From assembly GCA_963809895.1 (NCBI GenBank), contig CAWELD010000003.1, positions 3,392,001 through 3,456,000 of the forward strand: a stretch of DNA of 64,000 nt. Direction: 5' to 3'. The notes beneath the pieces were generated by a model. That model was not told the DNA's origin. It was given only the letters and a program-made list of their open reading frames with translations, and ran no database searches. The DNA is from an uncultured Gemmatimonadales bacterium. Its GTDB lineage: Bacteria > Gemmatimonadota > Gemmatimonadetes > Longimicrobiales > Gaopeijiaceae. Below, piece by piece: positions 1 to 35,674 of the stretch. Numbering within the stretch: the first letter of the stretch is position 1; each line of letters begins with the position of its first letter. The translations under genes were made by a program, and so were the position numbers.

Positions 1-1834
1 CGTCCCGGAGCATCTTCCCCACCGGGATCCCGGTCCAGCCCGAGATCACCTGCCCCACCAATTCGCCGTCCACGGTCACCGGCACCAGGGGATCCTCTCC
101 CTGGAGCGCGTCCAGCTCCTCGTCCAGCGCCACCAGCTCCCGTCGCAGCGCCTCGGGGTCGGCCTTCTCCGGGGCGGATTCGGGGGATTCCGGAGCGGCG
201 TCGGAGTCTCCGGCTCCGTCGGCTCCCGCCGCGGCCTCTTCGTCGCCTGCGGGGGCCGCCTCGGCCGTGGCCTCGGGGAGATCCTCGTCTCCCAGGTCGT
301 CGGCCGCAGCGCCGGCGGTGGCCTCCAGGGTCCGGCGGAGCTCCCGGATCTTGCCCACCAGCTCGGCTTCCTTCTCCCAGCGCTCCTTGAGCTGACGTAG
401 CTCCTCTTCGATGGTGTCGTGCTCCTCTTCCAGCCGCGCCAGGCGCTCGCCGTGGTCCAGCCCGAGCGCCTCCTCCCGGCGGAGCACCCGCATCTGCACC
501 TCGACGTCCTGCAGCCGGCGGGTCGCGGACTCCACCGGTGCCGGGGTCGAGCTCTGGCCCAGGGCCAGCCGCGCGCAGGCCGTGTCCAGCACGCTCACGG
601 CCTTGTCCGGGAGCTGCCGATCCGAGAGGTAGCGGGCCGACAGGTCGACGGCGGCTTCCATGCCGTCATCCAGGATGCGTACGCCGTGGTGCTTCTCGAG
701 GCGCGGCACCACGCCTCGCATCATGACCTTGCACAGCTTCTCGGCCGGCTCCTCGACCTTGACGAGCTGGAAGCGCCGCGTCAGCGCCGGGTCCTTCTCG
801 AAGTACTTCTTGTACTCGGACCAGGTCGTGGCGGCCAGCGTGCGCAGTTCACCCCGCGCCAGCGCCGGCTTGAGGAGATTGGCCGCATCGTTCTGCCCTG
901 CGGCGCCTCCGGCCCCGATCATGGTGTGGGCCTCGTCGATGAAGAGGATGATGGGCGTGGGCGACGACTTGACCTCGTTGATGAGGCCCTTGAGCCGGTT
1001 CTCGAACTCGCCCTTGACCCCCGCACCGGCCTGCAGGAGGGCCAGGTCCAGGCTCCGCACCGACACGTTGCGGAGCACGGGGGGCACCTCGCCCGCTGCT
1101 ACGCGCATGGCGAATCCCTCCACCACCGCGGTCTTTCCGACGCCTGCCTCACCCACCAGGATCGGGTTGTTCTGGCGACGTCGGGTCAGGATGTCCACCA
1201 CCTGGCGGATCTCGAAATCCCGGCCCAGCACCGGATCCATGCGGCCCTGACGCGCGTCTTCGGTCAGGTCGGTGGTGTACTTGTCCAGGTGCGTGGTCTT
1301 GCCACCTCCCGGACGCGCCGGAGCCTCTCCCGAGGCGCCCGTGGACTGGCGGGGGCCGTCCTCTTCCGACGACGCCCCCACGATGCTCTCGAAGTCCCGT
1401 CGCAGCTCGTCGCCGGAGATCTTGGCGAACTCGGAGCTGGAGGTGGTGAGCCGCTGCTGCAGGTCGCTGTCGGACAGCAGCGCCATGAGCGTGTGCCCCG
1501 TGCGGATGCGCGAGGCGCCGTAGTCCAGCGATCCGATGAGCCACGCCTCGCGCAGCATACTCACGATCTTGGGGCTCAGGGTGGGCCGGTCACCGCTCCC
1601 CGTCTTCATGCGGTCGAGGCGACTGGTGAGATCCGACGCCAGCCGTGCGCGGTCCACGCCGAAATGCTTGAGGATGAAGGCCACGTCCGAGTCGGTGTGG
1701 TCCAGCACCTTCATGAGATAGTGGTCGATCTCGACGTCGTAGTGCGTCAGGGACATGCAGTAGCCGGCGGCGGCGTCCAACGCGGCCCGGGTCTCGTCGT
1801 CGAGCTTGCCGATGAGGGCTTTGAGATTGATCAT
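1..1834 (-). CDS. tssH: T6SS AAA+ ATPase ClpV/TssH (3' end runs off the window)
   Basis: Not in the ORF track because there is no stop in the window. Manual translation from ATG at 1834 gives MINLKALIGKLDDETRAALDAAAGYCMSLTHYDVEIDHY..., then DPVLGRDFEIRQVVDILTRRRQNNPILVGEAGVGKT (Walker A), IILFIDEAH (Walker B) and YIEKDPALTRRF-type motifs. It lies directly downstream of tssG. Confidence 0.95.
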   Translation of the reverse strand, partial: MINLKALIGKLDDETRAALDAAAGYCMSLTHYDVEIDHYLMKVLDHTDSDVAFILKHFGVDRARLASDLTSRLDRMKTGSGDRPTLSPKIVSMLREAWLIGSLDYGASRIRTGHTLMALLSDSDLQQRLTTSSSEFAKISGDELRRDFESIVGASSEEDGPRQSTGASGEAPARPGGGKTTHLDKYTTDLTEDARQGRMDPVLGRDFEIRQVVDILTRRRQNNPILVGEAGVGKTAVVEGFAMRVAAGEVPPVLRNVSVRSLDLALLQAGAGVKGEFENRLKGLINEVKSSPTPIILFIDEAHTMIGAGGAAGQNDAANLLKPALARGELRTLAATTWSEYKKYFEKDPALTRRFQLVKVEEPAEKLCKVMMRGVVPRLEKHHGVRILDDGMEAAVDLSARYLSDRQLPDKAVSVLDTACARLALGQSSTPAPVESATRRLQDVEVQMRVLRREEALGLDHGERLARLEEEHDTIEEELRQLKERWEKEAELVGKIRELRRTLEATAGAAADDLGDEDLPEATAEAAPAGDEEAAAGADGAGDSDAAPESPESAPEKADPEALRRELVALDEELDALQGEDPLVPVTVDGELVGQVISGWTGIPVGKMLRD

Positions 1835-1843
1835 GGCGGCCCC

Positions 1844-2887
1844 TCAGAGGGTGAGGACGGTATCGTCGGCGTCTCGGGCCATGGGGGCCGAGCGGAGCCA
1901 GGTGGACCATCCCAGGGGAATATCGTCGTCTTCGCCGAGCTCGATGCGGGGCACATCGCCCCGTTCGAGGATCAGCTTGACCTCGAACTCGATCTCGTCG
2001 TTGGAAAAGAAGCGCGTGATGGCCCGCAGATCGCGGTATGCGGAGCCGGTGGGCAGGAACTCCCGGTACGTCTCCAGGGGCAGCGGGCCCAGCGTGAGGC
2101 GGACCCTGGAATTGGGATCCCAGACCTCGTCGCCGACCAGGGCGCCCAGGCCGAGCTGCGAGGAGTAGTCGTCGGACTCGTCGTCCACGCGGCACTGCAC
2201 GCTTTCGGACACGTCGTACCAGGCACCCACGAACTGCTCGACCTCGACAGGCACTTCGAAATAGTCCTCGAGGATCTGCTCGAGGGCGCCCGCGCTCCGT
2301 TGGCGGGTGGCCAGGAGCCCCACGTAGGGGAGGAGCAGGCGCGCATCCAACTCCAGCGCGTCGCGGGCACCGGCATCGCCCAGTCCCACCAGGTCGAACA
2401 GGTGCGTGGTGACGGGATCCTCTTCGCCACGCTCGAAGGGCGCGTAGAACCGGTAGCGCTCCCAGGCCCGATAGAAGAGGGAGACCAGCCGATGGTGGAA
2501 GAGGTCCAGGAAGTCCAGCAGCGCCGGGTGTCGGTTGCGCGCCCGCTCGGATACGAGGACGGAATAGTGCCGCGGGAGCACGCCCATGTGTCCCACCAGC
2601 CCCATGAAGTTCACCCGCATGCGCCAAGGCGCCTCGTCTCCGTCGTCGAAGAGCTCGTCGATCTCGCTGGCGGGAAAGGCCAGGTCGGGGTTGGAGCCGA
2701 AGCGAAGGATCTCGTTGGCGGGATCGCCGAAGTACCCCACCCGCTCGCGATCCGGGTGGAGCCGCTGGAGCAGGCGCACGGCCTGGAAGAACCGGAAGGA
2801 ATGGAGGTCCTCCACCAACTCCCGGTCCAGCGAGCGCATCTCGGCTCCGGTCAAAGGAGCGGCTTCAGTCCTGCCCTCGGTGGCCAT
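1844..2887 (-). CDS. tssG: T6SS baseplate subunit TssG
   Basis: C-terminal 347 aa of ORF 1844..4267, from MATEGR. Motifs FRFFQAVRLL, LAFPASEI, VNFMGLVGHMGVLPRHYS, FLDLFHHRLVSLFYRAW, LGWSTWL. Overlaps the tssF 3' end. Confidence 0.93.
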   Translation of the reverse strand: MATEGRTEAAPLTGAEMRSLDRELVEDLHSFRFFQAVRLLQRLHPDRERVGYFGDPANEILRFGSNPDLAFPASEIDELFDDGDEAPWRMRVNFMGLVGHMGVLPRHYSVLVSERARNRHPALLDFLDLFHHRLVSLFYRAWERYRFYAPFERGEEDPVTTHLFDLVGLGDAGARDALELDARLLLPYVGLLATRQRSAGALEQILEDYFEVPVEVEQFVGAWYDVSESVQCRVDDESDDYSSQLGLGALVGDEVWDPNSRVRLTLGPLPLETYREFLPTGSAYRDLRAITRFFSNDEIEFEVKLILERGDVPRIELGEDDDIPLGWSTWLRSAPMARDADDTVLTL

Positions 2888-4680
2888 GCCTTCAAAATCT
2901 CCGGACGCTGCCTGGTTCGTGCAACAAGGCGTGAAAAGCTGTTGAGCGACGCGTACTGTGCGAGGAAGCGCTCCAGCACCGAGGCGAACAGGAAGACGCT
3001 GTCCCCGGTGAAGGCCTCTTCGTCGAATTCGATCTCCACGCTCCGCCCCCGGGCGAAGCTCAGCCCGTGCGCCCCGTGCACCGGTGCCTGCATGGGTTCG
3101 CTGCGGATGCCCAGGATGCCGTCGATGTGGCGCTGCGCCAGCGGAGATCCGCCGAAATCGTAGAGCCGGAGCATCTCCTTGAAGGCGTCGGCTCCCCGCT
3201 CCACCAGCGACAGGTGATTCAGGGACAACATGGACACCAGACGCCAGAACTGCCGACCGCCCAGCGGCGGTCGGATCGCCCGCGTGGGCGTGATCAACGC
3301 CGAAATGGCCTTGAGCGGCGCGGCTTCCTCTTCCAGGTAGAAGTCCGAGGGCGCGGTGCCGAAGGGGAGCTCGTTGGGCAGATTGCCGTTGGAGCAGAGC
3401 ACCGTGGCCGCCACCGAGTGGAACTCGGGGTGCAGGGTCGTGCCTTCCACGTCGACGAAGGCGATCCAGACGTCCGAGGCGCCGTCCCGTGCCCAGCGTC
3501 GGGGCTCCCGACGCGAGTACCAGAACGCGGCGGGCTCCGAGTCGCCGGAGCGGTGCCGGAGGGCGTAGAAGGGCTCGAAGGGCACCTTCTCGGTGCTGCC
3601 CGCCGAGATGGCCGCCACGCTCTCGATGGAGAACACCTCGGCATCCCCCTGGATCGAGACCGGATACTCGACCTTGCGCTGGTCCAGGGTGATGGGCCGC
3701 GAAGTGGCGGAGAACAGGTTGACGACGGGCGTGCACCCGAAGCGGAACGTCTTTCTCCCGACCCCTTCCTGGAGGCGTGCGTGGCGCTCGGGAAGCTGGA
3801 AGCGCGAGATGTAGAACAGCACCTGCGCCGAGGTGCCCAGCTCGGTGGAGCGCAGGCGTTCGAGGCCGCCCAGATCCAGGAAGAAGTACTTGCGCGGAAA
3901 GGCGAAATACTCCTGGATCATGCGGAACGGCAGGAACGACCGGCGCGGCTGGGGGATCATGCCCTGGTTCGGCTCGAATCCCACCGGCCTGAGCTCGCGG
4001 GCCGGCAGCGTGAAGCGCCGCTCGGGAGTCTCGGGATCCCACACCACGATGTGGGTGCAGTTGTTCAGCAACAGCTCGTAGAGCCCACCGATGAGCCCCG
4101 GCTCGCCGTCCAGGAAGAAGCGCAGCTCGGAGATCGGCAGCTCGTTGAGCGGCAGCTGTCCCAGCGATTCCAGGTCGAGGCGCAGCACCGCGGCCGCGTC
4201 GGTGGGCGTGGGGTGCCCGATCTCCTGGGGCGAGTGCCAGCCCGCGTCGCGCACCCGCAGGGGCCACAGCGTCGTCTCGTAGCAGGTGCGGAAGCGCCAG
4301 CGGCTGCCGTCGGTGGCCGGAGGGGTCACCAGGCGCGCGTGCCGGGGAATCGTCCAGCCGCTGGCCAGCATGCTCTGATCCGGATCGAGCTCGAGCTCCA
4401 CCAACGACATGGAGGGCAGCGGCCGCAGGTAGTGGGGATAGACGACGTTCAGGAGCGCCTGGGCGATCTCCGGAAAGTCGTCGTCTACCTTCAGGTGCAC
4501 GCGCGCCGCGAGGAACGCAAAGCCCTGCAGGAGCCGCTCGACGTGCGGGTCCTCGGCTCGCGTGGCCTCCAGTCCCAGGCGTGACGCGACGGCCTTGTAA
4601 TCCTGGGCGAACTCGGCTCCCAGCTTGCGCAGGAACGTGAGCTCCCGCTCGTAGTAGTCGAGAAGCCGTTCGTCTCTCAT
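2851..4680 (-). CDS. tssF: T6SS baseplate subunit TssF
   Basis: LLDYYERELTFLR, EDPHVERLLQGFAFLAARVHLKVDDDFPE, YPHYLRPLPSMS, QEYFAFPRKYFF, CTPVVNLF, FASVLERFLAQYASLNSF. Confidence 0.96.
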   Translation of the reverse strand: MRDERLLDYYERELTFLRKLGAEFAQDYKAVASRLGLEATRAEDPHVERLLQGFAFLAARVHLKVDDDFPEIAQALLNVVYPHYLRPLPSMSLVELELDPDQSMLASGWTIPRHARLVTPPATDGSRWRFRTCYETTLWPLRVRDAGWHSPQEIGHPTPTDAAAVLRLDLESLGQLPLNELPISELRFFLDGEPGLIGGLYELLLNNCTHIVVWDPETPERRFTLPARELRPVGFEPNQGMIPQPRRSFLPFRMIQEYFAFPRKYFFLDLGGLERLRSTELGTSAQVLFYISRFQLPERHARLQEGVGRKTFRFGCTPVVNLFSATSRPITLDQRKVEYPVSIQGDAEVFSIESVAAISAGSTEKVPFEPFYALRHRSGDSEPAAFWYSRREPRRWARDGASDVWIAFVDVEGTTLHPEFHSVAATVLCSNGNLPNELPFGTAPSDFYLEEEAAPLKAISALITPTRAIRPPLGGRQFWRLVSMLSLNHLSLVERGADAFKEMLRLYDFGGSPLAQRHIDGILGIRSEPMQAPVHGAHGLSFARGRSVEIEFDEEAFTGDSVFLFASVLERFLAQYASLNSFSRLVARTRQRPEILKAWPPRAGLKPLL

Positions 4681-4714: not shown

Positions 4715-5191
4715 TCATTCCGTCACGGTGAAGCGCCCGCTGTTCATCTCGAGCACCGTATCGAACTCCACGCGCTCGGGGTCCGGGTCCAGGCGCAGCG
4801 TCGCCTCGATGACGAACTTCAAGCTGCGCGTGGACTTGCTCTTGGCATCGTCGTCGGCGCGGTGGATGCGTACGTCCCTGAGGCGCGGCTCGAAGAGCTC
4901 GATCTCGCGCTCGATCATGCGCAGGAGCCGGGCCGGCGTCGTCGAGGCGTCGGCGCTCATCGACGCGAAGTCCGGCAGCCCGTAGTTGTAGATGGAGTTC
5001 TCCAGCTCCACCCGTGGAGCCGTGGCCGGCGAGCCGCTCTCGCGAGTGTTCAGGAGCCACTCCAGGTCCCGCAACAGGTTGTCCTTGAGCCGCTCCACCG
5101 AGCCGTCCCAGTCGCGGGGCTCCGGCTCCTCGCGGATGATACGGTCCAGGATCGACTGCCGGACCCTCGACGGGCGGTCACGCTGAGCCAT
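4715..5191 (-). CDS. tssE: T6SS baseplate subunit TssE (gp25-like)
   Basis: From MAQRDRP: SILDRI, RDLEWLLNTR, SIYNYGLPD, IELFEPRLRDVRI, FVIEATL. Confidence 0.92.
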   Translation of the reverse strand: MAQRDRPSRVRQSILDRIIREEPEPRDWDGSVERLKDNLLRDLEWLLNTRESGSPATAPRVELENSIYNYGLPDFASMSADASTTPARLLRMIEREIELFEPRLRDVRIHRADDDAKSKSTRSLKFVIEATLRLDPDPERVEFDTVLEMNSGRFTVTE

Positions 5192-7061
5192 CGCCTTCCT
5201 CCGTCGACTCGGCGCCGGCCTCCGCGGGCTGAGCCGGGGCCGCGGCCTTGCCCCCGGCGGCGGGCGCAGCCGTGGTGGCACTGCCCTCGAGCGAGATGGC
5301 CAGCACCGGGTCCAGACGGCAGATGTCGTCGTAGAGCTGCTGGCGCTTGCGATCGTTGGCCGGAAGGCACCTGTAGAGGAGCCCCAGGGGCCGGGCGATC
5401 ACGGCGGCCGGCTCCCACTGCTCCAGATTGCGCTTGCCGATCTGGTCGACGAGCTGCTCCAGGATGGGCCGCGCGACGCCGGTGCTGCCCATGTCCACCA
5501 GCACCGAGGCCGCCAACGACTCGGTGATGAAGCGGGCTCGGGGGCTCTCCTCGCGGTCGGCACGCTTCATGAGAAGCTCCACCCCCCGGCGCGGGTTGCC
5601 CGACGCCACCCACTCCAGGGCCTTCTCGTGGGTGGCCTCGCTGAGGACGCGGTCCCGGTCGTAGTCCGGGCTCGCGCTCGCCCCACCGTCGGCCTCGCCA
5701 TCCCCCCCCACCAGTCCCGACAGCCGCAGCCATTCCACCGTCTCGACGTTGGCGGTGGGCGTGTCGTCCATCAACGTCTTGTCGAGGATCTCCGGGAGAT
5801 CGCGCAGGAGTTGGGCGATCTCGCCCTGGATCGCCTCGGCTACCGGACGGTAGGTGGACCCGAGATTGTCCAGCGCAGTGAGCACGTAGCGCTGCAGATC
5901 GAGCCAGCCACGACCGCTGGGCGTCGCCATGACGTCTTCACAGGCGCTCAGGAGCGCCTCCCACTCTCCGTTGAGGAGGTGCATCTTGAGGCGCTTGCGC
6001 AGCTCCGTGGAGGGCGCGTCCAGCAGACGCACGTCCAGTCCGCTGCCGGTACGCAGCTCGCCCCAACGGAGCGCACGCAGGACCAGGTACGGGGCCGGAT
6101 TCGTGGGATCGGCCTTGCGCAGATAGCGGGCGGCCGAGGTGATGCGGCCCTGGGCATCGTCGGAGCTCGCCGGCTCTGCGGACAGCGAGCCTCCGCTCCG
6201 GGGCGCCGCAGCGGCTGCTGGCGCACTCGGGCCACCGGCGTCAGTCTCTGGACTCGCGCTCGCATCGTCCGCACCCGGTGTCGCGGCGGCCTCCGCTTCG
6301 GGGGGATCCGGGTCGGTCTCCAACTTCTTCTCGACGAGGACGCCCACGTAGGTCTGAGCCCGCTCCAGGCTCTCCCGGAGATGCGTGAAGCTCGGGCGAT
6401 GGCCCTTGCTGTCGGCGTAGCGCTGCCCGCACAGCTCCTGAAGCGCCGCCACCTCTTCGAGACAGCCCTTCACCTCCGCCTCGCGCTCCCGGTACCACGC
6501 CTTGGAGGTCTCGGCGAAGCCCTGCTCGAAGTTGTCGGACCGGGGCGCCCGCGGGTCGTCGTCCTCGTCCTTGCCCTTCTTGCGCGCGTCGCCTTCGCCG
6601 AAGGAGTCCTTCTTGATCCCCCTCCACGATTCGAAGTGGTGCAGGTGATGGCCCCACGAGGTGATGGAGACGAACTTCACCGGTTCGTAGCGTTCGTCCC
6701 TGGCCTTGAATCCGTCGCCCATGTAGTCGAGAACGAAGGCCCGGTCCTCGGGATGCTCCGGAAAGAGGTGATCCCAGAGCCCGTCCAGAAGCCCGTGGAC
6801 CAGTCGCAGGCCCTGGCGCAATCCCCCGAAGCCGTCCATGTGGAGTCGCGCCTCGGTGTACCACACGGCCACGGTGAGATCCTTGGACTCCCCGGTGAGG
6901 ATCTCGGTGGCGACCTCCACCACCTCGGCGAAATCGCCTTCACCGTCCCTGGCCTCTTCGCGCAGGTCGGTGAGCCGGGAGTAGATGGTCTCATAGCTGA
7001 CGTCGGTTCCCCCGGGGCGCTCCTCGTCGATGGGCGCCAGCAGCTCGTCCAGCCCGCTCAT
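5178..7061 (-). CDS. tssA: T6SS protein TssA (ImpA_N plus VasJ-like C-terminal region)
   Basis: From MSGLDELLAPIDEERPGG: ESKDLTVAVWYTEA, GLRQGLRLVHGLL..LWDHLFP, PAPYLVLRALRW, WLDLQRY, DDTPTANVETVEWL. Confidence 0.9.
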   Translation of the reverse strand: MSGLDELLAPIDEERPGGTDVSYETIYSRLTDLREEARDGEGDFAEVVEVATEILTGESKDLTVAVWYTEARLHMDGFGGLRQGLRLVHGLLDGLWDHLFPEHPEDRAFVLDYMGDGFKARDERYEPVKFVSITSWGHHLHHFESWRGIKKDSFGEGDARKKGKDEDDDPRAPRSDNFEQGFAETSKAWYREREAEVKGCLEEVAALQELCGQRYADSKGHRPSFTHLRESLERAQTYVGVLVEKKLETDPDPPEAEAAATPGADDASASPETDAGGPSAPAAAAAPRSGGSLSAEPASSDDAQGRITSAARYLRKADPTNPAPYLVLRALRWGELRTGSGLDVRLLDAPSTELRKRLKMHLLNGEWEALLSACEDVMATPSGRGWLDLQRYVLTALDNLGSTYRPVAEAIQGEIAQLLRDLPEILDKTLMDDTPTANVETVEWLRLSGLVGGDGEADGGASASPDYDRDRVLSEATHEKALEWVASGNPRRGVELLMKRADREESPRARFITESLAASVLVDMGSTGVARPILEQLVDQIGKRNLEQWEPAAVIARPLGLLYRCLPANDRKRQQLYDDICRLDPVLAISLEGSATTAAPAAGGKAAAPAQPAEAGAESTEEGDGSA

Positions 7062-7069
7062 GGCCGAGG

Positions 7070-7786
7070 TCAGGTCTCGGAGGGACCGTCGATGACGAGC
7101 TCGCGCAACTCGAGGATGGGAAACTCCTCGTCGTCGACCAGGAGCATCTTCTGGCCCACGGGAGCCTCGTCTCCGTCGGAGAGCTCCACCCACCGGGTGA
7201 CCCGCCCGAGACGGACCTCGTCGTCGGGGTCGGAGCTCGCGGACGCCGTGAGCGCCGGCACCAGGGCATCGCCGAGCTCCACGCCACCCAGGGGCTCGCC
7301 GCCCGTAATCTGCACGCGTGCCCACAGGAGGTCACGAAGTCGCTGCGGCGCCTCCATGCGAACCGATGCCAGGTGCTCCAGCGCGAACCAGCGATACTGG
7401 CCTTCGATGAATACCTCGAGGCGGGGGCCGATCCGGGGATCGGCGTCCTCGAGCCGCTCGAAAGGCTTGCCGTTGAGCGTGCCCCGCACCGGACGAGGCG
7501 CAGGATCGCCGGGCTCCGGGAACGCGCCGGATGCGAACATCTCGGCGCGTTCCCGTTCGCTCTCGATGACGTGCTTGTAGGCGATGATTCCCAGGGCCGC
7601 CTCCGGGTCCATGCGTGCGAGCACGTCCAGCTGCTTGCCCGCGCGCTCGTAGTCGCCGGCGAAGCTGAGCAGCTCGAACAGAAACGTGCGTCGCTGCACG
7701 TCGGTGGGGTCGTCCCGCACCTCGGCGTTCAGGGCCTCGATGGCCGCCGTCAGCCTGCCTTCCCGATAGAGGGCCCTGGGATCCAA
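7070..7786 (-). CDS. tagJ: T6SS accessory protein TagJ/ImpE/SciE
   Basis: GRLTAAIEAL..EVRDDPTD..RRTFLFELLSFAGDYERAGKQL, DADPRIGPRLE, RDLLW, VRLGRVTRW, GQKML. TTG start. Confidence 0.9.
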   Translation of the reverse strand: MDPRALYREGRLTAAIEALNAEVRDDPTDVQRRTFLFELLSFAGDYERAGKQLDVLARMDPEAALGIIAYKHVIESERERAEMFASGAFPEPGDPAPRPVRGTLNGKPFERLEDADPRIGPRLEVFIEGQYRWFALEHLASVRMEAPQRLRDLLWARVQITGGEPLGGVELGDALVPALTASASSDPDDEVRLGRVTRWVELSDGDEAPVGQKMLLVDDEEFPILELRELVIDGPSET

Positions 7787-7806: not shown

Positions 7807-8292
7807 CTACGCCACCCCGGTGCGGACGTCCCAGCTACCCACGTGGTCGCCACCGCGGGTGCCGTCGGGATTCTGCTCGGCGTAGGTGATCTCCACGCGG
7901 CCGAAGTCGAAGTTGACCACTTCCTGGGGGACCGGGTCACCCGAGTCGGCACCCGACCACTGGATGGCCGACACGTACAGCTCCTCGAAGTCGTACACGA
8001 GGTAGTCCAGGGCGGCGCTGCCCCCCGACTTGTACAGGGTCAGCTTGCCCGTGGGAAAATGCTCCCCGGTGCAGCACTTCATGAAGAGCTCGGCGCTGGC
8101 TGCATCGGTCTTCTTGACGACCGTGAAGGGGGACAGGCTCACCGTGCCGGTGCCGCCGCCGCCGCCGACGCCCACACTCGAGGGATTGGAGGCGCCGAAA
8201 TCGAAGGAGATGATCTCGATCTCCCCCTCGTGTCCGCTCCTCTGGGACTCGCCAGAGACTCCTTCGATGGTCAGATATGCATCCCACGCCAT
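7807..8292 (-). CDS. hcp: T6SS tube protein Hcp/TssD
   Basis: DAYLTIEGVSGESQ..HEGEIEIISF, VKKTDAASAELF, GEHF, EVVNFDFGRVEITY, WDV. RBS GAGGAGG upstream. Confidence 0.96.
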   Translation of the reverse strand: MAWDAYLTIEGVSGESQRSGHEGEIEIISFDFGASNPSSVGVGGGGGTGTVSLSPFTVVKKTDAASAELFMKCCTGEHFPTGKLTLYKSGGSAALDYLVYDFEELYVSAIQWSGADSGDPVPQEVVNFDFGRVEITYAEQNPDGTRGGDHVGSWDVRTGVA

Positions 8293-13608: not shown

Positions 13609-14730
<1,122 letters not shown>

Positions 14731-24364: not shown

Positions 24365-27411
<3,047 letters not shown>

Positions 27412-27639: not shown

Positions 27640-29430
27640 ATGACGCCCACCGCCGGAGACCCCGACGGCCCCAGGGATCCCCGCGATCGCATCGGTACGA
27701 TCCTCGCCGGGCGCTACGAACTGGTGGAGTATCTAGGGGGAGGGGCGCAGGGCGAGGTGTACGCGGGCATCCACCGCAAGATCGGCCGCCGGGACGCCAT
27801 CAAGATCCTCAAGAACCGGTTCCGGCACGACTCCGACGCCGTGGCGCGCTTCACGCGGGGCGCCGCCAACGCCTCCAGGATCTCGCACCCCAACGTGTGC
27901 ACGGTCTACGACTTCGGCGAGACCGACGAGGGCCTGCCCTTCCTGGCCTCCGAGTTCGTTTCGGGCGAAACCCTGGGCGATATCCTGGAGCGCGACGGGG
28001 TCCTGACGCCGGAGCGGGTCGTGGAGATCGCCCGCCAGGTGGCCTCGGCGCTGGAAGCGGCACACCAGCTTGGCATCGTGCATCGCGACCTGAAGCCGGA
28101 CAACATCATGCTCACCACCGACGCGGCCGGACGCGAGCGCGTGAAGGTGGTGGATTTCGACATCGCCAAGGGATCCAAGGAGGGCCTGGAGGGCGGGATC
28201 ACCCGTGGCGGCTGGGTGGTGGGCACCCCCCAGTACATGAGCCCGGAGCAGCTCAGCGAGGACGCACTCGACGGCCGAAGCGACATCTACTCGCTGGCCG
28301 TGGTCCTCTTCAAAGCGCTCACCGGGCGGCTGCCCACCCGCAGCTCCTCCACGCAGGACCTCATGGTCGAGCGGCTGACCCAGGACGCGTTGCTCCTCTC
28401 GGAGGCGGTGCCCGATGCGGGGTTCCCGCCGGCGCTCGAGCAGGCTCTGGCGGCCGGGCTGGCCCGCAAGCGCGAGGACCGTCCGCCCCGCGCCATGGAC
28501 TTCGCGCACCGGCTCGCGGCGTCGCTCACGGCCGGGGGGGCGTCGGCGGGGCTGCCCGCTACGGAGTTGCAGCCGGTACGGACCGAGGTGCCACCCACCA
28601 CGGCCGGCCCGTCGCCCGGAGCCGGCTCCCGAGACGCGCCGCCCCCTGGGGTCGGCTCCGGGAATACCCGCCGTTGGGTGCAGGTGGCCATCGGCGGCGT
28701 GCTGGTGGTGGTGGTCCTCTTCGGCGGATGGTCCCTGGTGTCCGGCGGGAGAGGCGACGCGCCCCCCGTCGACGACGTCGAAACCCCGCCCCGGGCCGCG
28801 ACTCCCGACCGGCTGCAGACGACCCCCGCCGAACTCCGTTTTTCCGCCACGGTCGGCCAGGCACCGGACCCAGCCAGCGTCGCGGTTCGCGCCGCGTCGG
28901 GCGGCTCCGCTCCGGTGGAGGTCCGTGCCGAGTACGACGGCGATGCAGGCGGCTGGCTCGATGCCGCCCTGGATGGCGCGCAGACGCCCACCACGCTGCG
29001 CGTCACGCCCCGAGGCGACGGACTCGCCGCCGGCACCTACAGCGGCCGGGTCGTGCTCCGCCTCGGAGCGGACGGCCCCGAGCAGGCGATCCCCGTGCGC
29101 ATGGAGCTGGCCGAAGCTCCCGGACCGTCGCCCGGCCCGCAGCCGAGCGCCGCCGACCTCGCCGCCCGAGCCCGCCGCATGCTGGTGTTGGTGAGCAGCG
29201 CCGGGAGCGACCGGGAGCTCCGCGCGGTGCGGGACTCCACGGCCCCGCTCTGGGAGAACCGCTCCCTGCCCGACCGCACCCGGGCCCTGGCCGCCTACGT
29301 ACACGGCCTGGCCCTGTCACGCCTGGGCGAGGGGGGAGCCGAGGCGTGCCGCCTGTGGGCCGGGCGAGCCCTGGACCTGGCGCCCGACGACGAGAGCTAT
29401 CAGCGGCAGCTCGAGGGATGCGGCTCCTGA
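27640..29430 (+). CDS. Atypical Ser/Thr kinase: kinase, TM, BACON-like domain, helical C-terminus
   Basis: LGGGAQG, DAIK, HRDLKPDN, GTPQYMSPE, SDIYSL are present. RFTRGA has no alphaC Glu and DFD replaces DFG. TM VAIGGVLVVVVLFGGWSLV. Confidence 0.92.
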   Translation: MTPTAGDPDGPRDPRDRIGTILAGRYELVEYLGGGAQGEVYAGIHRKIGRRDAIKILKNRFRHDSDAVARFTRGAANASRISHPNVCTVYDFGETDEGLPFLASEFVSGETLGDILERDGVLTPERVVEIARQVASALEAAHQLGIVHRDLKPDNIMLTTDAAGRERVKVVDFDIAKGSKEGLEGGITRGGWVVGTPQYMSPEQLSEDALDGRSDIYSLAVVLFKALTGRLPTRSSSTQDLMVERLTQDALLLSEAVPDAGFPPALEQALAAGLARKREDRPPRAMDFAHRLAASLTAGGASAGLPATELQPVRTEVPPTTAGPSPGAGSRDAPPPGVGSGNTRRWVQVAIGGVLVVVVLFGGWSLVSGGRGDAPPVDDVETPPRAATPDRLQTTPAELRFSATVGQAPDPASVAVRAASGGSAPVEVRAEYDGDAGGWLDAALDGAQTPTTLRVTPRGDGLAAGTYSGRVVLRLGADGPEQAIPVRMELAEAPGPSPGPQPSAADLAARARRMLVLVSSAGSDRELRAVRDSTAPLWENRSLPDRTRALAAYVHGLALSRLGEGGAEACRLWAGRALDLAPDDESYQRQLEGCGS

Positions 29431-29453: not shown

Positions 29454-30863
29454 GTGTCCCGGATACGCGTGGAGCGTGGAGCCCGGGCCGGGTGGTCCGT
29501 CGAGCTCGCCGACGACGAGGTGCTCGTCGGCCGAGCCCCCGGCGCCGGCGTGCGCATGGACCCCGAAGCCGACCGGGGCGTGTCGGCGCGGCACGCCCTC
29601 CTGGTGCGATCCCCCGAAGGCTGGACCGTCCGGGACCTCGGAAGTCGCAACGGCACGCGCCTCAACGGCGAGCCGCTCACCTCGGTCGCGCTGCTGAGGC
29701 CTGGGGATCGCATCGAGCTGGGAGACGGCGGACCTCGCCTCGTCTACGAAGAAGGGCGGCCGGCACGTTCGGCGCCTTCGCACGCAGACCCGCCGCGCAC
29801 GGTCGCCGCTCCGCGGCCGAAACAGGGCGGGGGCCGGGTGGTGGGACTCACCGTGGCCGTGGCGGCCGTGGGCGCCCTCGCCCTCGCCGCGGTGTTCACC
29901 CGACGCTCCGCTCCCGGCGCCTCGACGAGCGAGGCGGAGCGGGCGAGCCCCGCCCTGCCCGTCCCGGACACGACTGCGGCAGACCCGGACTCCACCGCCC
30001 GCGAGCTCGAGGCTCTGCGTTCACGGGTGGCGGGGCTGGCCGAGGAGCTGCGACGCTCCCGCGACCAGGCCGATTCGCTTCAGGCGGCGCTGGACCAGGC
30101 CGAGGAACGGGGCGCCGACGACGGCGAGGTCCAGGAGCTCCGGCGCAGGCTCCAGTCGGCCAGCGCCGCCCTGCTGCGCCAACAGGCGGCCGCCACCCTC
30201 GACTTCGCCGATCTGGAGGCGAGCACCCGCGCCGCCACCGCCCAGGTCTACGTGGAGTTTCCCGGCGGGCGCGTGATCGCCGCCACCGCCTTCGCCGTGG
30301 ACTCCGCCGGTTGGCTCGTCACCAATCGGCACGTGGTGCGGGACTCCGCGGGCGCCCGTCCCGAGCGCATCGGCGTCCAGCTCGCCGGCCGCTCCGGCGT
30401 GCTTCCGGCCCAGGTGCTGGCGGTGGCCAACCTCGACGACGTGGCGTTGCTGCAGGTGCGGGCGCCCGGTGCGCTGCCGGTGATCCGGGGCTTCAACGAG
30501 CGGCTCGACACGATCCGCTCAGGGGCGGCGGTGGCGTCGTTCGGCTTTCCGCTGGGCGGCGACGCGGCGGCGCTGGAGGGCCGTGGCGGCACCATCGCCG
30601 AGCCGTTGGTGACCGCCGGCATCCTCACCGACCACGGCGGCGAGCTGCTCGAGGTGCAGGGCTACGGCGCCCGGGGCGCCAGCGGCAGCCCTCTGGTGGA
30701 CGGCCGCGGTCACGTGCTGGGGATGATCGTCGGTGGCCGCATCGAAGGCGAGACCCAGACGCTCTTCGCCGTGCGGGCGGACCGCATCCGCGAGTTCCTG
30801 GACCGGCGGCGGGTGGGTCCGGGGGGGCGACCGCGTGAGCCGGGGCGGCGCCCCCGGACCTAG
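29454..30863 (+). CDS. FHA domain, TM, coiled coil, trypsin-like serine protease
   Basis: FHA motifs LVGR, VSARHA, RDLGSRNGTRLNG. TM VVGLTVAVAAVGALALAAVF. Intact triad VTNRHVV / DDVALL / GASGSPL. Confidence 0.92.
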   Translation: MSRIRVERGARAGWSVELADDEVLVGRAPGAGVRMDPEADRGVSARHALLVRSPEGWTVRDLGSRNGTRLNGEPLTSVALLRPGDRIELGDGGPRLVYEEGRPARSAPSHADPPRTVAAPRPKQGGGRVVGLTVAVAAVGALALAAVFTRRSAPGASTSEAERASPALPVPDTTAADPDSTARELEALRSRVAGLAEELRRSRDQADSLQAALDQAEERGADDGEVQELRRRLQSASAALLRQQAAATLDFADLEASTRAATAQVYVEFPGGRVIAATAFAVDSAGWLVTNRHVVRDSAGARPERIGVQLAGRSGVLPAQVLAVANLDDVALLQVRAPGALPVIRGFNERLDTIRSGAAVASFGFPLGGDAAALEGRGGTIAEPLVTAGILTDHGGELLEVQGYGARGASGSPLVDGRGHVLGMIVGGRIEGETQTLFAVRADRIREFLDRRRVGPGGRPREPGRRPRT

Positions 30864-30897: not shown

Positions 30898-31629
30898 TCA
30901 GACGCCGGAGCGCTCCTTCTCCAGCGTCTGCCGGGGCTCCTCCCAGTCGGGGAACTTGTCCACGACCCGGTCGAGCTGCTCCATGCCCTCGTCGCGGAAT
31001 CCCTCGTCCAGGAGCTTGAGCGCCAGCGAGTACTCGGTGAACGCCTCGGGCGGCACCTGCTTCGACTGCTCCTCCCGCTCCTCCTTCACCTGCTGCGGCA
31101 GCGGCGGCAGGTCCACGGAGCGCGTGAGCTGATCGGCCAGGTCGACGATGAGCGTGAGGATCTCGGTCCTCGGTCCCTGCTCCTTGGCGCCGGTCTCCCA
31201 TTCCCCGGTCTCCACGTCGACGATGCGGGCGTCGATGCGCACCTGGCCGAAGATGTCGGCGAAACTGCCGAGCACCACGTAGTGGGCCTGGACCAGGCGA
31301 CCGACCTGCAGCGCGGTGGCGGGATCCACCAACCGGTCGTTCTCCTGCAGATTCAGCTCCTGGATCAGGTCCGCGATGCGTCCACGCTCGACGATGCGGA
31401 GCCCGGAGTTCTGGCCCAGTTCGGTGAGAAGCATCTGCTGGAGGCCGACACCCAGCGCGTCGAAGTTCTCGGCCTCGGCGCCGGGCCCGTGCGAACCGCC
31501 GTTGTCGAAACGCAAGACGGCGACTCCGGGCCGCGTATCGGCGGCGGCCGAATCCTGGGCGGCGAGGCCCGGCGCGGAAACGAAGGCTGCGGTGGCGACA
31601 GCGATGGCGAAACGGACCGGACTTGCCAT
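30898..31629 (-). CDS. Exported CsgG/HfaB/TolB-N-like protein
   Basis: Signal peptide (LAA|Q), VAVLRFDN, LRIVERGRIADLIQELNL, VDPATALQVGRLVQAHYVVLGSF, RIDARIVDVETGE. Confidence 0.85.
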   Translation of the reverse strand: MASPVRFAIAVATAAFVSAPGLAAQDSAAADTRPGVAVLRFDNGGSHGPGAEAENFDALGVGLQQMLLTELGQNSGLRIVERGRIADLIQELNLQENDRLVDPATALQVGRLVQAHYVVLGSFADIFGQVRIDARIVDVETGEWETGAKEQGPRTEILTLIVDLADQLTRSVDLPPLPQQVKEEREEQSKQVPPEAFTEYSLALKLLDEGFRDEGMEQLDRVVDKFPDWEEPRQTLEKERSGV

Positions 31630-31698
31630 AAGATTCTCCAGAAGCCGGATACCCAAGCCAGGACATGCGCGGCCATGTCCCTCTCTGGATGGTTAGTC

Positions 31699-33015
31699 AT
31701 GAACGGAACGCCGCGCCAGCCTCTACGACGTGGTCGGAACTGGTGCCTGCCCTGGATCGTGGCCGCGCTCGGCGCGTGCGCCACCGCCCCTCCGCAGGCG
31801 CCCGGACCGTCGGAGCTCCCCGCCCTCGAAGCCCGGTTGCGCGCCGACTCCACCGACGTAGCCACGCTGGTGGCGCTGGGCGCCGGTTATCAGGCGGCGA
31901 ACGATCCGGAGCGGGCTCGACCGCTGCTGGAGAAGGCGGTGGCCCTGGCTCCCGACGATCAGGCGGCTATCCTGTTTCTGGGGGCGACCTACGAGGACCT
32001 GGAGCTGCTGGACCAGGCGCTGGCCACCTACACGAGCTACCTCGAAGGCAATCCCTCCGACGACGATCGTGACCGGGTGCAGGACCGCGTCGCCCTCCTG
32101 CGCAGGAGGTTGGTGGAGCGGAGGGTGCGGGCCATCGTGCAGGGTGAGGCGACCCGGACCGTGGCCCCCTCGACGGTGGCCGTCTTCCCGTTCGTGTACG
32201 CCGGCACCAGTGAGGACTACGCGCCGCTGGGCCGGGCGCTGGCCGCGATGCTGGCCACGGACCTCTCCCTCACCGACCGACTCACGGTGGTGGAACGCCT
32301 GGAGCTCCAGCTCCTCCTCGACGAGACCGCCCTGGGACAATCGGCGCTGGTAGATCCCGCCACCGCGGTGCAGCCGGGCCGGCTGGTGGGAGCCGGCGAG
32401 GTCGTGCAGGGCGCCCTGGGCGGCGACGACCAGACCGTGACGCTGGAAGCGGCCGTGGTAGGCGTCTCGGACCAGACCGGTGAGGTGCGCTTCAACGTGT
32501 CGAACCAGGGCGCGGCCTCGGACCTGTTCGACCTGGAGAAGGACATGGCGTTCTCGCTGTACGACGCCCTGGGCGTGGAGCTCACGCCGGCCGAGCGTGA
32601 GCGCATCAGCGAACGCTGGACCGACAACGTCCAGGCGTTGCTGCAGTTCGGCATGGGGCTCGAGGCGGAGGACCGCGGCGACTACGCCGAAGCCCGAGCC
32701 CGTTACCAGCAGGCGGTGCGGCTGGATCCCGGGTTCGATCAGGCGCAATCCAGAGCCGGGAGCGCCGACGAGATCTTCCGGGCCGCCAGCGTCGGGGTCG
32801 CCGAGATCGCCGACATCGCCCGGGCGCAGCTGTCGGTGAACCTGTCCGACTTCCAGGACCTGGTCACGCTCGAGGGCCTGCTGAACGGCACGCTGGACCT
32901 GGTGAACCTGCCCGGGGTGCGGGACGTCGCCACCGAGCTGCTGGGTGTGGAGGGATTCCGGCCGGCCACGCTGCACATCGTCCTGGGCCCGCCGAAGGGC
33001 GGGAGTGACCGATGA
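31699..33015 (+). CDS. TPR plus CsgG-like lipoprotein
   Basis: Lipobox ALGAC. TPRs (LVALGAGYQ..ARPLLEKAVALAPDD). VAVFPF, LTVVERLELQLLLDE, VDPATAVQPGRLVGA. C-terminal TPR YQQAVRLDPGF. Confidence 0.85.
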   Translation: MNGTPRQPLRRGRNWCLPWIVAALGACATAPPQAPGPSELPALEARLRADSTDVATLVALGAGYQAANDPERARPLLEKAVALAPDDQAAILFLGATYEDLELLDQALATYTSYLEGNPSDDDRDRVQDRVALLRRRLVERRVRAIVQGEATRTVAPSTVAVFPFVYAGTSEDYAPLGRALAAMLATDLSLTDRLTVVERLELQLLLDETALGQSALVDPATAVQPGRLVGAGEVVQGALGGDDQTVTLEAAVVGVSDQTGEVRFNVSNQGAASDLFDLEKDMAFSLYDALGVELTPAERERISERWTDNVQALLQFGMGLEAEDRGDYAEARARYQQAVRLDPGFDQAQSRAGSADEIFRAASVGVAEIADIARAQLSVNLSDFQDLVTLEGLLNGTLDLVNLPGVRDVATELLGVEGFRPATLHIVLGPPKGGSDR

Positions 33016-34175
33016 GCCGCCGGTGCGGGGCGACGACCCGGGCGCGGCGCTCGTCGCCGACCCCGCTGACCCGGTTCCTCGGGGGACTGCCGGCGGCGGC
33101 GCTGCTCGCCGTGGTCGCGCCCGTGCACGCCGCGGCACAGAGTCGGACGGTGGTGGCGGCCGGCGTGGAATTCCAGCGCATGGGCTTCTCCGACGCCGGC
33201 GCCGTGGGCACGGACGCGCTCACGCTGCTCACGACCTCGTGGGCCGCGCGCTTCGCCGCCAGCCCCACCGTGGACGTCTCGGTATCGGGGAACTGGGCTC
33301 GCGCCGAAGAGACGAACCCGGCCGGCGGCACGCGCTCGCTGGCGGGTCTCACCGACACGCAGCTCGAGGCCACCCTGCGCCTGGCGGGAGGCGATGTCGC
33401 CCTCACCGGGATGCTGGCGCTTCCCACCGGAAGCCCGGCCCTGGAGCTCGGCGAGATCGAGGTGGCGGCACGGATCGCGTCGGACCTGCTGCCCTTCCGG
33501 ATCAGCAACTGGGGCTCGGGGGGCGGGGCGGGCGCCCGGGTGGCGCTGGCCCGCCGCTTCGGTGGCGTCGGAGCCGGCGTGAGCGCCGGCTACTTCGTGG
33601 GCCGGGAGTTCACGCCGCTGGGATTCACCGACACCGAGTACCGGCCCGGGAGCTCACTGGTGATCCGCGGCGTGCTGGACGGCAACGTGGGGCGCGCCGG
33701 CAAGGCATCGCTCCAGCTCACCGTTCGCACCTACGGGCACGACCAGCAGGACGGGGGCGACGCCTTCCAGGCCGGCGCCCGCACCCAGGCGCTGGCCTCG
33801 TACGCCTTCCGCGTCGGCACCCGATCCAGCGCCGTGCTCTACGCCGGCGCGCTGCACCGCGCCGAAGGCACGTCGGAGAGCAGCATCATCGGCATCGGCG
33901 CCCGCACCCTGGTCACCGCGGGGGGTAGCGGGCGCTTCCAGGTAGGCGGCGTTCGCCTCATCCCCGCCGCCGACGTCCGCCTGGTCACCGCCTCCGACGG
34001 CATCGACCAGGGCTACGAACTCGGCTTCGGCGGGCGGGCGGAGGTGACACGAGGCAGCGTGGTCCTGGTCCCTGAGGCTCGCCTCCACCTGGGCCGTCTC
34101 GCGCTTCTGCGCGACGTGGCCGAGTCGAGCTATCTGGGCCTCGATGTGGGATTCACCGTGAGGCTCCGGCCATGA
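33012..34175 (+). CDS. Putative outer-membrane beta-barrel protein
   Basis: Signal peptide (AAA|Q), alternating amphipathic beta strands, C-terminus YLGLDVGFTVRLRP. ATGA-coupled to both neighbours. Confidence 0.7.
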   Translation: MSRRCGATTRARRSSPTPLTRFLGGLPAAALLAVVAPVHAAAQSRTVVAAGVEFQRMGFSDAGAVGTDALTLLTTSWAARFAASPTVDVSVSGNWARAEETNPAGGTRSLAGLTDTQLEATLRLAGGDVALTGMLALPTGSPALELGEIEVAARIASDLLPFRISNWGSGGGAGARVALARRFGGVGAGVSAGYFVGREFTPLGFTDTEYRPGSSLVIRGVLDGNVGRAGKASLQLTVRTYGHDQQDGGDAFQAGARTQALASYAFRVGTRSSAVLYAGALHRAEGTSESSIIGIGARTLVTAGGSGRFQVGGVRLIPAADVRLVTASDGIDQGYELGFGGRAEVTRGSVVLVPEARLHLGRLALLRDVAESSYLGLDVGFTVRLRP

Positions 34176-35674
34176 CCGCCCCCACGGCTGTGCCGGCACG
34201 ACGTTGGCTCGCGCTTCTGGGGTTGGGCCTCGCGGCCTCGCTCCAGGGGTGTGACGCCCTCCTTACCGATCCCACCTCCGCCCCGGCCGCCCAGTTGCAC
34301 CTCTCGGTGTCCCCCGTGCGGGCGGAGCAGACCCAGGGCACCCTGCTGCAGGCCTTCGCGCAGGTGGACGAGGTGCGGATCCGGCTGGAGGACGGCGGGG
34401 GGGCACCGGTGCTGGACCGGACCGTGCCCTTCCGGTTCGTGGCCGGGCTCGCCGTCCTCGACCCGGTCACGCTCACCCCCGACGAGGCCGCGGGGGTGGC
34501 GAGACTGATCGTCACCCTGCGCTCCCAGTCCCGAACGCTCTTCACGGCCGCCACGCCCCTGTCCCTCTCCGGCCAGGACGCCAGTGGCGCCGTGGTCCTG
34601 ACCGTGACCCCGGTGCCGGGCGAGATCGAGGTCACGCAGGTTCCCACCTTCGACGCCCTGGGGGCCACGGGTCAGCTGACCGCCCGCGTGACGCTGGCCA
34701 CCGGCCAGGAAATCCCCGGAACTCCGGTGACCTGGACCAGCCTGGACCCCCAGATCGTTTCCGTGACGCCTCAAGGGCTCGCCACGGCGGAAGCCGAGGG
34801 ACAGGCTCGCCTGGTGGCCCGGGCCGGAACCGGAAGCGCCGCGGTCACCGCCATGACCACGGTGGTGGTGGATGCGACGGTGGACCAGGTGATGGTGGAC
34901 CCCTCCTCGCTGGAGATCATGGTGGAGGACGAGGGCAGCCTCACCGCCACGGCGCTGGACCGGAACGGCAACGCGCTTCAGCGCACGGTGAGCTGGAGCT
35001 CCAAGGACGAGTCGGTGGCGAGAGTGGCCTCGGATGGTCCCGCGACGGGCATCGTGACCGGCGAGGGGCTGGGAAGCACCAAGGTGATCGCCACTGCCGA
35101 CGGGGTGAGCGGCTCCGCCTCGGTTCAGGTGGTCCGCCAGCTCGCCATCGTCACCGGCACCCTCGCCCAGGGCACCGTGGGCGAGTCCTACTTCACCGCG
35201 CTCGCCGCCGTGGGCGGCACCGGGAGCTATCAGTGGCGGGTCGCGTCAGGTGCGCTGCCGCCGGGGATCGGGCTCTCCCAGAGCGGTCAGCTGTCGGGCA
35301 CACCCACCGCCGAGGGTGACTGGGTCTTCACTGCGGCGGTGCAGTCGGGCTCGCAGGAGGCGACGCGTACGCTGACGCTGTCCACGCGCTACGACCGCAC
35401 CTCGTCCATCCTCGTGACCGTGGTCCTGTTCAACCAGCCCTACTCCGGGGTGCGGGTCGACCTCTCGGGGCCCGACGCCGCCTCCACCGTCACCGACTCC
35501 AACGGGCAGGCGTCCTTCGGCAACCTGCGCCCGGGTGAGTACACGGTCTCGTTCGACCCGGGCGCGTACGCGGCCTACTTCCCCTCCACCAGCCAGACCG
35601 TGACGCTCACGGGCTCCGGCTCGCAGGCGACCATCACCTTCAGCAGCGTGGGCGGGCAGGCCATGGGCAACTAG
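34172..35674 (+). CDS. Ig-like repeat lipoprotein (Big_2 x2, putative Ig, carboxypeptidase-regulatory-like domain)
   Basis: Lipobox LQGC. VTWTSLDPQIVSV and VSWSSKDESVARV repeats. GALPPGIGLSQSGQLSGTPT. TDSNGQASFGNLRPGEYTV. Confidence 0.82.
   Translation: MTAPTAVPARRWLALLGLGLAASLQGCDALLTDPTSAPAAQLHLSVSPVRAEQTQGTLLQAFAQVDEVRIRLEDGGGAPVLDRTVPFRFVAGLAVLDPVTLTPDEAAGVARLIVTLRSQSRTLFTAATPLSLSGQDASGAVVLTVTPVPGEIEVTQVPTFDALGATGQLTARVTLATGQEIPGTPVTWTSLDPQIVSVTPQGLATAEAEGQARLVARAGTGSAAVTAMTTVVVDATVDQVMVDPSSLEIMVEDEGSLTATALDRNGNALQRTVSWSSKDESVARVASDGPATGIVTGEGLGSTKVIATADGVSGSASVQVVRQLAIVTGTLAQGTVGESYFTALAAVGGTGSYQWRVASGALPPGIGLSQSGQLSGTPTAEGDWVFTAAVQSGSQEATRTLTLSTRYDRTSSILVTVVLFNQPYSGVRVDLSGPDAASTVTDSNGQASFGNLRPGEYTVSFDPGAYAAYFPSTSQTVTLTGSGSQATITFSSVGGQAMGN

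Follow-up and report, generated by a model that had tools for sequence, protein, structure and literature searches.

How a type VI secretion system (T6SS) is switched on outside the Proteobacteria, from which, to our knowledge, nearly all T6SS regulation is known, is the question raised by a T6SS locus of an uncultured Gemmatimonadales bacterium (GCA_963809895.1, here G000). The locus occupies the first 35,674 bases of the window, by which we mean the whole stretch of 64,000 nucleotides analysed (G000:C3:3392001–3456000). It combines a scaffold protein bearing T-x-x-F threonine motifs, the same motif in TssM and a set of envelope signalling genes placed after tssM. From motifs and gene linkage we lean, by a small balance of probability, towards a system in which threonine phosphorylation triggers T6SS assembly through components that have no relation to TagQRST and Fha1 of Pseudomonas.

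To determine how closely each gene follows the T6SS, we counted it in 60 relatives of G000 (21 TssC-positive and 39 TssC-negative, with G019 counted among the positives by its TssB-TssC fusion only, yet carrying both tssK genes) and in 300 genomes of the phylum at least 90% complete (28 TssC-positive and 272 TssC-negative). G036 and G007 gave partial TssC matches only.

The scaffold (13609–14730, reverse strand) consists of a folded N-terminal domain, a proline-rich tether with four G/S-x-F/Y-T-x-x-F/I/M repeats and a C-terminal membrane helix, and it is the only one of 11122 open reading frames (ORFs) in G000 with at least two such T-x-x-hydrophobic repeats. A profile of its N-terminal domain matched 16 of the 21 TssC-positive relatives against none of the 39 negative ones, and 26/28 against 2/272 in the phylum sample. 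One of the two TssC-negative carriers, G183, has both tssK genes; conversely, G305 has both tssK genes and no scaffold match. The 24 scaffolds compared carry 2–9 repeats each, and the +3 residue is phenylalanine in 83 of 106 motifs, all chosen by a pattern that fixed the threonine and permitted five residues at +3. We conclude that the scaffold is a hallmark of this T6SS type. Its N-terminal domain resembles a protein kinase N-lobe by eye; this identity was not confirmed, as there was no Pfam match and hhalign with shallow profiles gave a probability of 1.9% and an E-value of 0.027.

The scaffold gene lies between two tssK genes (PF05936), copy 1 at 12153–13556 and copy 2 at 14711–16204 (the extent of the ORF, with the gene itself probably starting near 14855), followed by a short, DotU-only tssL (PF09850, 16218–16940) and tssM (16980–20393), all four on the forward strand. 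This tssK-scaffold-tssK-tssL-tssM order is intact in 21 Gemmatimonadota loci that were read; in G301 the two tssK genes are adjacent with the scaffold elsewhere, and in G336 the stretch is interrupted. The same five-gene order, with one extra gene, is found in Granulicella, where the repeat protein has nine repeats and a C-terminal membrane helix and lacks the N-terminal domain. TssM itself carries a conserved T-x-x-F in a variable, Ala/Pro-rich cytoplasmic loop, present in 25 of 26 anchored sequences (from 30, four without an anchor being omitted) compared to 59 of 356 background windows.

By its sequence, the locus is classed as a type i T6SS with 12 core genes, a tip of the PAAR-like kind and no TssJ. 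TssA, TssB, TssC, Hcp, TssE, TssF, TssG, ClpV, VgrG, TssK, TssL and TssM all scored above their Pfam cut-offs in the window and its left flank, and the tip protein in that flank belongs to the Tox-PAAR-like family PF13665. TssJ (PF12790) was absent from G000 above cut-off (best E-value 0.14), in a search where the E. coli positive control matched. Fha1/TagH (TIGR03354) was likewise not found: the FHA-protease described below has no match, and the sole other FHA protein of G000 scores 28 against a cut-off of 120 and lies 2.8 Mb away. The TagQRST families were absent among the locus proteins in Pfam and NCBIfam scans, no genome-wide search having been made.

At the place of tssJ, directly after tssM, is a PrcB_C-like lipoprotein gene (20465–20989, forward; PrcB_C in the Atlas at 0.90), whose strong orthologues (E < 1e-30) occur in the same 16 of 21 TssC-positive relatives as the scaffold and in none of the 39 TssC-negative ones. 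It is a candidate outer-membrane anchor that would replace TssJ. As a TssJ homologue it found no match in either sequence or fold: for its model, with a predicted local distance difference test (pLDDT) score of 84, Foldseek returned no match at E ≤ 0.001 and the best VIA hit had a Z-score of 2.9, TssJ not being listed, although a missing match does not prove a new fold.

Which genes could act on the threonine motifs? Kinase 2 (27640–29430, forward) is a PpkA-like receptor Ser/Thr kinase with a single membrane helix and a helical periplasmic end domain, and the neighbouring FHA-protease (29454–30863, forward) joins an FHA domain through one membrane helix and a coiled coil to a trypsin-like protease whose full catalytic triad (H293, D329 and the S413 region) is invariant in 7/7 aligned sequences. 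In both, the kinase or FHA domain is predicted to lie inside and the helical domain or protease outside. CsgG-like 1 (30898–31656, reverse), a CsgG/LpoB-like protein with a signal peptide and a TPR-like end, would be periplasmic. A PP2C phosphatase gene, adjoining kinase 2 in relatives, lies at the left end of the G000 locus (NF033484, 218.5 bits against a cut-off of 230). Kinase 2 is the only one of 33 kinases in G000 with DFD in place of DFG. This DFD is conserved in the T6SS-linked kinase 2 orthologues of the window's order; eukaryotic MNK kinases also have DFD.

These genes recur beside the T6SS. In the window's order they come immediately after tssM and share its strand, as lipoprotein, kinase 2, PP2C, FHA-protease and CsgG-like 1 in G015, G003, G012, G047, G046, G031, G023 and G296, and with the same arrangement minus PP2C in G041. 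Orthologues of the FHA-protease were found in 14/21 TssC-positive and 0/39 TssC-negative relatives, and those of CsgG-like 1 (E < 1e-40) in the same 14, all T6SS-positive. Together with kinase 2 and the lipoprotein they are syntenic with the T6SS in three families and occur in none of the 39 TssC-negative relatives.

Outside the window's order the picture is different, and the kinase tree hints at where the genes may have come from. Named Gemmatimonadales loci contain an operon of a zinc-ribbon double-FHA protein, a DFG kinase, PP2C and FHA-protease. In a tree of 41 kinases, built by a quick method with a midpoint root, nine T6SS-linked DFD kinases of the window's order form a clade (SH-like approximate likelihood ratio test, SH-aLRT, 99) that is sister to the housekeeping kinases, six T6SS-linked kinases of other orders (Gemmatimonadaceae and G227) branch from within the housekeeping clade (99), and that of G301 stands apart. 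Because the T6SS-linked kinases fall both sister to and inside the housekeeping clade, the tree suggests that this kinase family was recruited beside tssM at least twice, in a direction that the tree does not prove. A scan of the collection with the kinase alignment covered 2/64 of the collection's parts, and about 65 of the 80 loci that it gave are unrelated kinases. The neighbours of the T6SS-free operon (L061, L062, L064, L065, L068, L074 and L167) are presumably genes of a cell-wall recycling type, namely amidase, anhydro-MurNAc kinase and etherase-like genes as we read them from the sequence, together with ribonucleotide reductase. This operon is possibly a cell-wall-sensing module of Gemmatimonadales.

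For the contact between the periplasm and kinase 2, structure prediction gave a lead. When CsgG-like 1 was modelled together with the outer domain of kinase 2, the predicted complex scored 0.44 against 0.00 for the best control, which is weak support; the mark was reached by 116/157 solved complexes and 2/215 mismatches, and at scores of ≤0.60 by only 18/157 of the former and both of the latter. The runs shared at least 88% of contacts, with a partner pLDDT of at least 87. The models weakly suggest binding between CsgG-like 1 and this domain.

The mechanism that we favour, because known systems work alike, is a relay across the envelope. In the periplasm, CsgG/LpoB-like protein 1 would bind kinase 2 at its outer domain, and the kinase, thereby activated, would phosphorylate the T-x-x-F threonines on the scaffold and TssM. 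The signal may be contact, as the first-pass annotation proposed, damage or the state of the cell wall. FHA domains, of the FHA-protease or of FHA proteins encoded elsewhere, would read the phospho-sites, so that scaffold, TssM and baseplate would cluster and nucleate assembly, and PP2C would reset the phosphorylation. A TPR lipoprotein, a barrel and an Ig lipoprotein, described below, may form the surface end of this chain, its least certain step. Precedents exist for the separate steps: PpkA of Agrobacterium phosphorylates T14 of TssL, which is then bound by Fha (PMC3953482, in its available text); TagQ/R has been modelled on PpkA, and a periplasmic protein proposed as kinase activator (excerpts of PMC13713981); and in the TssW-PpkA-Fha axis, TssW binds both PpkA and TssM (PMC12607579, likewise in excerpt).

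Several observations weigh against a phosphorylation trigger. No match to the FHA-protease was seen in 17 of 28 TssC-positive phylum genomes, although all five of those tested have other FHA proteins, and neither the FHA-protease nor CsgG-like 1 has an orthologue in G029 and G032, whose TssC is nearest to that of G000. The loci of G029, G125, G256 and G181 stop after the lipoprotein. The scaffold N-domain occurs in G179, where no tssC or tssK was found, and in G321, of the window's own family, PP2C, FHA-protease and CsgG-like 1 share a 5.6-kb contig and again no tssC or tssK was found. With 33 kinases in G000, kinase neighbours come cheap, and the DFD of kinase 2 is atypical, its activity being predicted. 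Lastly, the genomes are related, and our presence and absence counts overstate their independence.

In the main rival, the T-x-x-F motifs would be docking peptides that work without phosphorylation, contacting the duplicated TssK or another baseplate part; the scaffold would then be a structural adaptor that the kinase layer merely tunes. TssM and TssK are in contact in E. coli, the scaffold gene is always placed between two tssK genes or next to them, and the scaffold and TssM motif are kept in G125, G256, G181 and G029, which have no adjacent kinase or FHA gene. Granulicella, similarly, has nine repeats and a PP2C, with the 41 kb that were read containing no kinase. However, an invariant threonine followed at +3 by a large hydrophobic residue is the pattern that FHA domains read (pT+3, as given in the available part of PMC3953482), and kinases or PP2C were repeatedly placed beside tssM. 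We regard docking as rather improbable. Ranked third, and to our minds quite unlikely, is that the genes for the kinase, FHA-protease, CsgG-like proteins, barrel and Ig proteins form a general kit for envelope signalling and adhesion, which accompanies the T6SS and has no control over it. The double-FHA/kinase/PP2C/FHA-protease operon is indeed common without a T6SS, lying in other orders among the cell-wall recycling-type genes, with TssC unmatched in 8/9 of the operon genomes tested; TssC-negative relatives have paralogous CsgG/barrel modules, G022 has the passenger trio described below, and G000 holds a second Ig/FHA/phosphatase-like/kinase cluster far from the T6SS. Such a kit fits poorly with orthologues that, in the window's order, are confined to TssC-positive relatives (14/21 against 0/39) directly downstream of tssM and on its strand, and with one kinase family apparently having been recruited on separate occasions.

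The surface genes follow the phosphorylation genes as CsgG-like 2 (31699–33015), a TPR and CsgG/LpoB-like lipoprotein; a predicted 16-strand outer-membrane beta-barrel (33012–34175); and an adhesin-like Ig lipoprotein (34172–35674), all on the forward strand. They follow likewise in G015, G003, G012, G019, G016, G014 and G052, and in L073 from other orders. The barrel model has 16 long strands at a pLDDT of 83.6; the protein has no sequence match in Pfam, NCBIfam or PDB, and in the Atlas it matches unnamed Gemmatimonadota clusters and one cluster with PF13557 in 11% of members. Barrel homologues occur in 20/21 TssC-positive and 8/39 TssC-negative relatives, and CsgG-like 1 homologues in 10/39 of the latter, in both cases as paralogous modules with other neighbours. 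The Ig lipoproteins share an N-terminal domain, have a variable C-terminal part and range from about 500 to 1260 residues. Each of the 19 CsgG-like 2 homologues listed has a similar strand at its C-terminal end, which is also seen in the pseudo-protease described below; a genome scan for it gave 90 loose matches and was uninformative. One idea is that the barrel, or the lipoprotein encoded next, serves as the docking site of this strand.

Similar modules were seen elsewhere. Loci L051, L053, L055 and L056, from mostly TssC-negative genomes, have a paralogous CsgG-like pair and a barrel, next to what we read from sequence as a protein with a caspase-like domain and a gene resembling phosphofructokinase. 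A kinase adjoins a CsgG-like pair in L079 and L091 (Myxococcota), and in G012 (L057:10158-13196) a CsgG-like gene immediately precedes an orphan vgrG. The second cluster of G000 (G000:C3:579-593 kb; L174:305-14289) encodes TPR-like and Ig proteins, one of 2115 amino acids, with an FHA protein, a phosphatase-like protein and a kinase.

A third group of genes, on the reverse strand between the lipoprotein and kinase 2, probably has a separate history. It comprises an Ig lipoprotein with Big_2, PKD and PPC domains (20964–23006), an exported trypsin-like pseudo-protease lacking the catalytic His and Ser in its sequence (23003–24364), and kinase 1 (24361–27411), a Ser/Thr kinase with a double zinc ribbon, a single membrane helix and Big_2 domains on its outer side. 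Further Big_2 domains of kinase 1 lie on the cytoplasmic side of that helix, its only clear one; similar kinases are found in many Gemmatimonadota. The trio is absent from the other loci of the window's order that were read. Its best match is an intact trio in the TssC-negative G022, near insertion sequences (59% over kinase and Ig domains, in a tally that includes the unpublished G241 and G123), and a kinase-1-like gene is nearby in one T6SS locus (G339). The trio at 21.0–27.4 kb is probably a later passenger.

Taken together, the 35.7-kb block forms a three-layered mosaic: a hallmark core, recruited signalling genes and a passenger. The first-pass annotation of this DNA had read the genes at 20.4–35.7 kb as a non-homologous, lineage-specific replacement of the sensing layer. 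That they form a single T6SS-specific unit is ruled out by the G022 trio and the housekeeping operon: the FHA-protease profile matches 110/300 phylum genomes (five candidates scored per genome, the unpublished G220 and G241 included), 11 of them among the 28 TssC-positive genomes and 99 TssC-negative, and the CsgG-like and barrel paralogues of TssC-negative relatives undercut it further. Replacement itself fared better, given the synteny over three families and a locus free of TagQRST and Fha1/TagH. The annotation had named equal occurrence of the accessory genes in relatives lacking a T6SS as evidence against itself; such occurrence holds for the families and fails for the orthologues in the window's order.

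The remaining genes are those of the core, transcribed in reverse and divergently from tssK copy 1. From the left edge these are the 5′ part of clpV/tssH (1–1834; AAA, Clp_N and AAA_lid domains, the full gene of 932 amino acids running out of the window), tssG (1844–2887; PF06996, E-value 2e-104), tssF (2851–4680; PF05947, 1e-206), tssE (4715–5191; PF04965), tssA (5178–7061; PF06812 and PF16989, TIGR03363 above cut-off), tagJ/impE (7070–7786; PF07024), hcp (7807–8292; PF05638), tssC (8343–9839; PF05943 and PF18945), tssB (9826–10338; PF05591) and an extra sheath-like TssB-TssC fusion (10528–12036). This fusion adjoins tssB in G029 and G032 and lies elsewhere in the genome of other carriers. 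On the right the block is bordered by lon.

Every gene listed for positions 1–35674 in the first-pass annotation is present by Pfam and NCBIfam scans, sequence or model, from the core, sheath fusion, two tssK genes and Thr-motif scaffold to the kinases, FHA-protease, pseudo-protease, CsgG-like pair, barrel and Ig lipoproteins, and the block is as nearly gap-free as described, with 34595/35674 bases coding (97%) and a largest gap of 258 bases at the start sites that we chose. The list needed corrections: tssA lies between tagJ and tssE, the PrcB_C-like lipoprotein follows tssM, the CsgG matches are partial (see below), and the locus extends about 10.5 kb further left (G000:C3:3381523-3392000; L001:9523-20000). 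That flank holds the remainder of clpV, vgrG, DUF6484, DUF2169, a ketoacyl-synthase-like gene, a PAAR-like/Tox-GHH2 nuclease, a probable immunity gene, TIGR02270 and the PP2C. Here, the DUF2169 adaptor gene (L001:15228-16329) is broken across two reading frames, an assembly error or a true break, and a short palindrome-like element stands between it and the next gene in two copies about 60 bases apart (L001:15120-15200).

We asked where this T6SS belongs. The annotation's suggestion of a poorly studied phylum is borne out, the best named matches of the locus proteins being Gemmatimonadota. It had also proposed placing TssB/TssC among the T6SS subtypes, and in a quick 30-row TssC tree a single clade (SH-aLRT 83) unites 19 Gemmatimonadota sequences and excludes five proteobacterial references; the rows include no H1 sequence, and the tree does not separate subtype i3 from i4b. 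TssC scores higher against PDB 9N4V (533 bits) than against 5N8N (442 bits), the H1 sheath structure. The best plasmid matches are from Granulicella and Gemmatirosa, then Ralstonia. The T6SS of Gemmatimonadetes and Acidobacteria plasmids has been assigned to a branch of i4b (PMC9113992, in the portion available), and our best sequence matches agree with that placement.

The phylum holds at least two further T6SS types in the quick tree, one grouping with Azospirillum (G017, G025 and G055) and one with Campylobacter (G082; loci of both types L017, L018, L019, L038-L039, L059 and L158-L159). G017, G025 and G055, in a different sheath clade from the window, are three of the five TssC-positive relatives without a scaffold, G036 and G007 with their partial TssC matches being the others. 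TssC of G000 pairs on a long branch with that of G029 and G032 from other genera, and the signalling genes of G000 are similar to those found within its genus (L003 compared to L004 and L005). Because TssC groups with other genera and the signalling genes with their own, the mismatch suggests that the G000 locus recombined.

Soils and sediments are rich in Gemmatimonadota and Acidobacteriota, and near-identical pieces of the locus were present in one salt-marsh and one wetland DNA run. A sediment RNA library contained near-identical contigs over clpV, tssF, tssE, tssA, hcp, tssC, tssL and tssM, a weak sign of expression given that they come without strand or level, that DNA may be present and that there is no silent control. 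If our reading is true, a T6SS, whose TssC was found in 28/300 of the sampled Gemmatimonadota genomes, can be assembled without TssJ and Fha, and a housekeeping envelope kinase operon would have been co-opted repeatedly for weapon control. The T-x-x-F of TssM and scaffold would be a concrete motif for mutation, and the mechanism is testable because named cultured carriers exist, Gemmatirosa kalamazoonensis and Granulicella tundricola. A bolder extension, which we consider doubtful, is that a Gemmatimonadota/Acidobacteriota lineage swapped TssJ, Fha and TagQRST for a trans-envelope trigger of its own. Here, a swappable Ig adhesin on the TPR lipoprotein and the 16-strand barrel would signal through the LpoB-like relay and the DFD kinase to a multi-site T-x-x-F code on scaffold and TssM, and an FHA-gated periplasmic protease would clear or mature the firing site.

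Among known systems, the locus resembles the H1-T6SS of P. aeruginosa, with which it shares a membrane kinase, a PP2C phosphatase, an FHA protein, tagJ and a gene order similar to the tssB-C-hcp-tagJ-E-F-G-clpV-vgrG of H1. The first-pass annotation had drawn the same parallel, and it holds at the level of gene order and logic; the locus lies outside the H1 set. Unlike H1, it has no TagQ/R/S/T or Fha1/TagH family and no TssJ, its FHA domain is fused to a membrane helix and periplasmic protease, and it has two TssK proteins and a separate multi-motif scaffold.

Agrobacterium tumefaciens shares an extra sheath-like gene and tagJ, and a Rhizobium plasmid has two tssC genes. In Agrobacterium, the Thr motif lies in the membrane-complex subunit TssL and has a hydrophobic residue at +3, a shared logic (PMC3953482), whereas the candidate site here is in TssM and multiplied on the scaffold, with no soluble Fha in the locus. 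TssW of Acidovorax citrulli, an outer-membrane protein binding the kinase and TssM, positions the machine (PMC12607579); likened by description, the CsgG-like/barrel/Ig set is a multi-gene counterpart to this one protein. The CsgG-like proteins have an alpha/beta domain in common with CsgG and LpoB, LpoB being the best solved relative (E 0.03), and CsgG-like 1 resembles LpoB as much as CsgG. They are ruled out as curli pores: they match less than half of the CsgG profile (positions 4–97 and 35–98 of 210), with PF03783, PF13036 and TIGR02722 below or near cut-offs, they carry added TPR parts, and the locus has no curli genes.

The best named matches for TssB, TssK and TssC are Granulicella tundricola pACIX901 and a Gemmatirosa kalamazoonensis plasmid, which have the same gene order, two tssK genes, the repeat protein and the TssM motif, and no annotated tssJ; compared to the window, the Granulicella scaffold lacks the N-domain and an adjacent kinase. 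These plasmid systems were classified by TssB only in the available text of PMC9113992, which leaves the accessory genes undescribed, as does the open-licence literature on Gemmatimonadota and Acidobacteria T6SS outside supplements and closed journals; the accessible portion of a 2026 review of T6SS accessory factors (PMC13584744) mentions neither CsgG nor Gemmatimonad nor Acidobacter. What is new here is the TssM motif, the three-layer mosaic, and a kinase operon of probable housekeeping origin that seems to have been recruited more than once.

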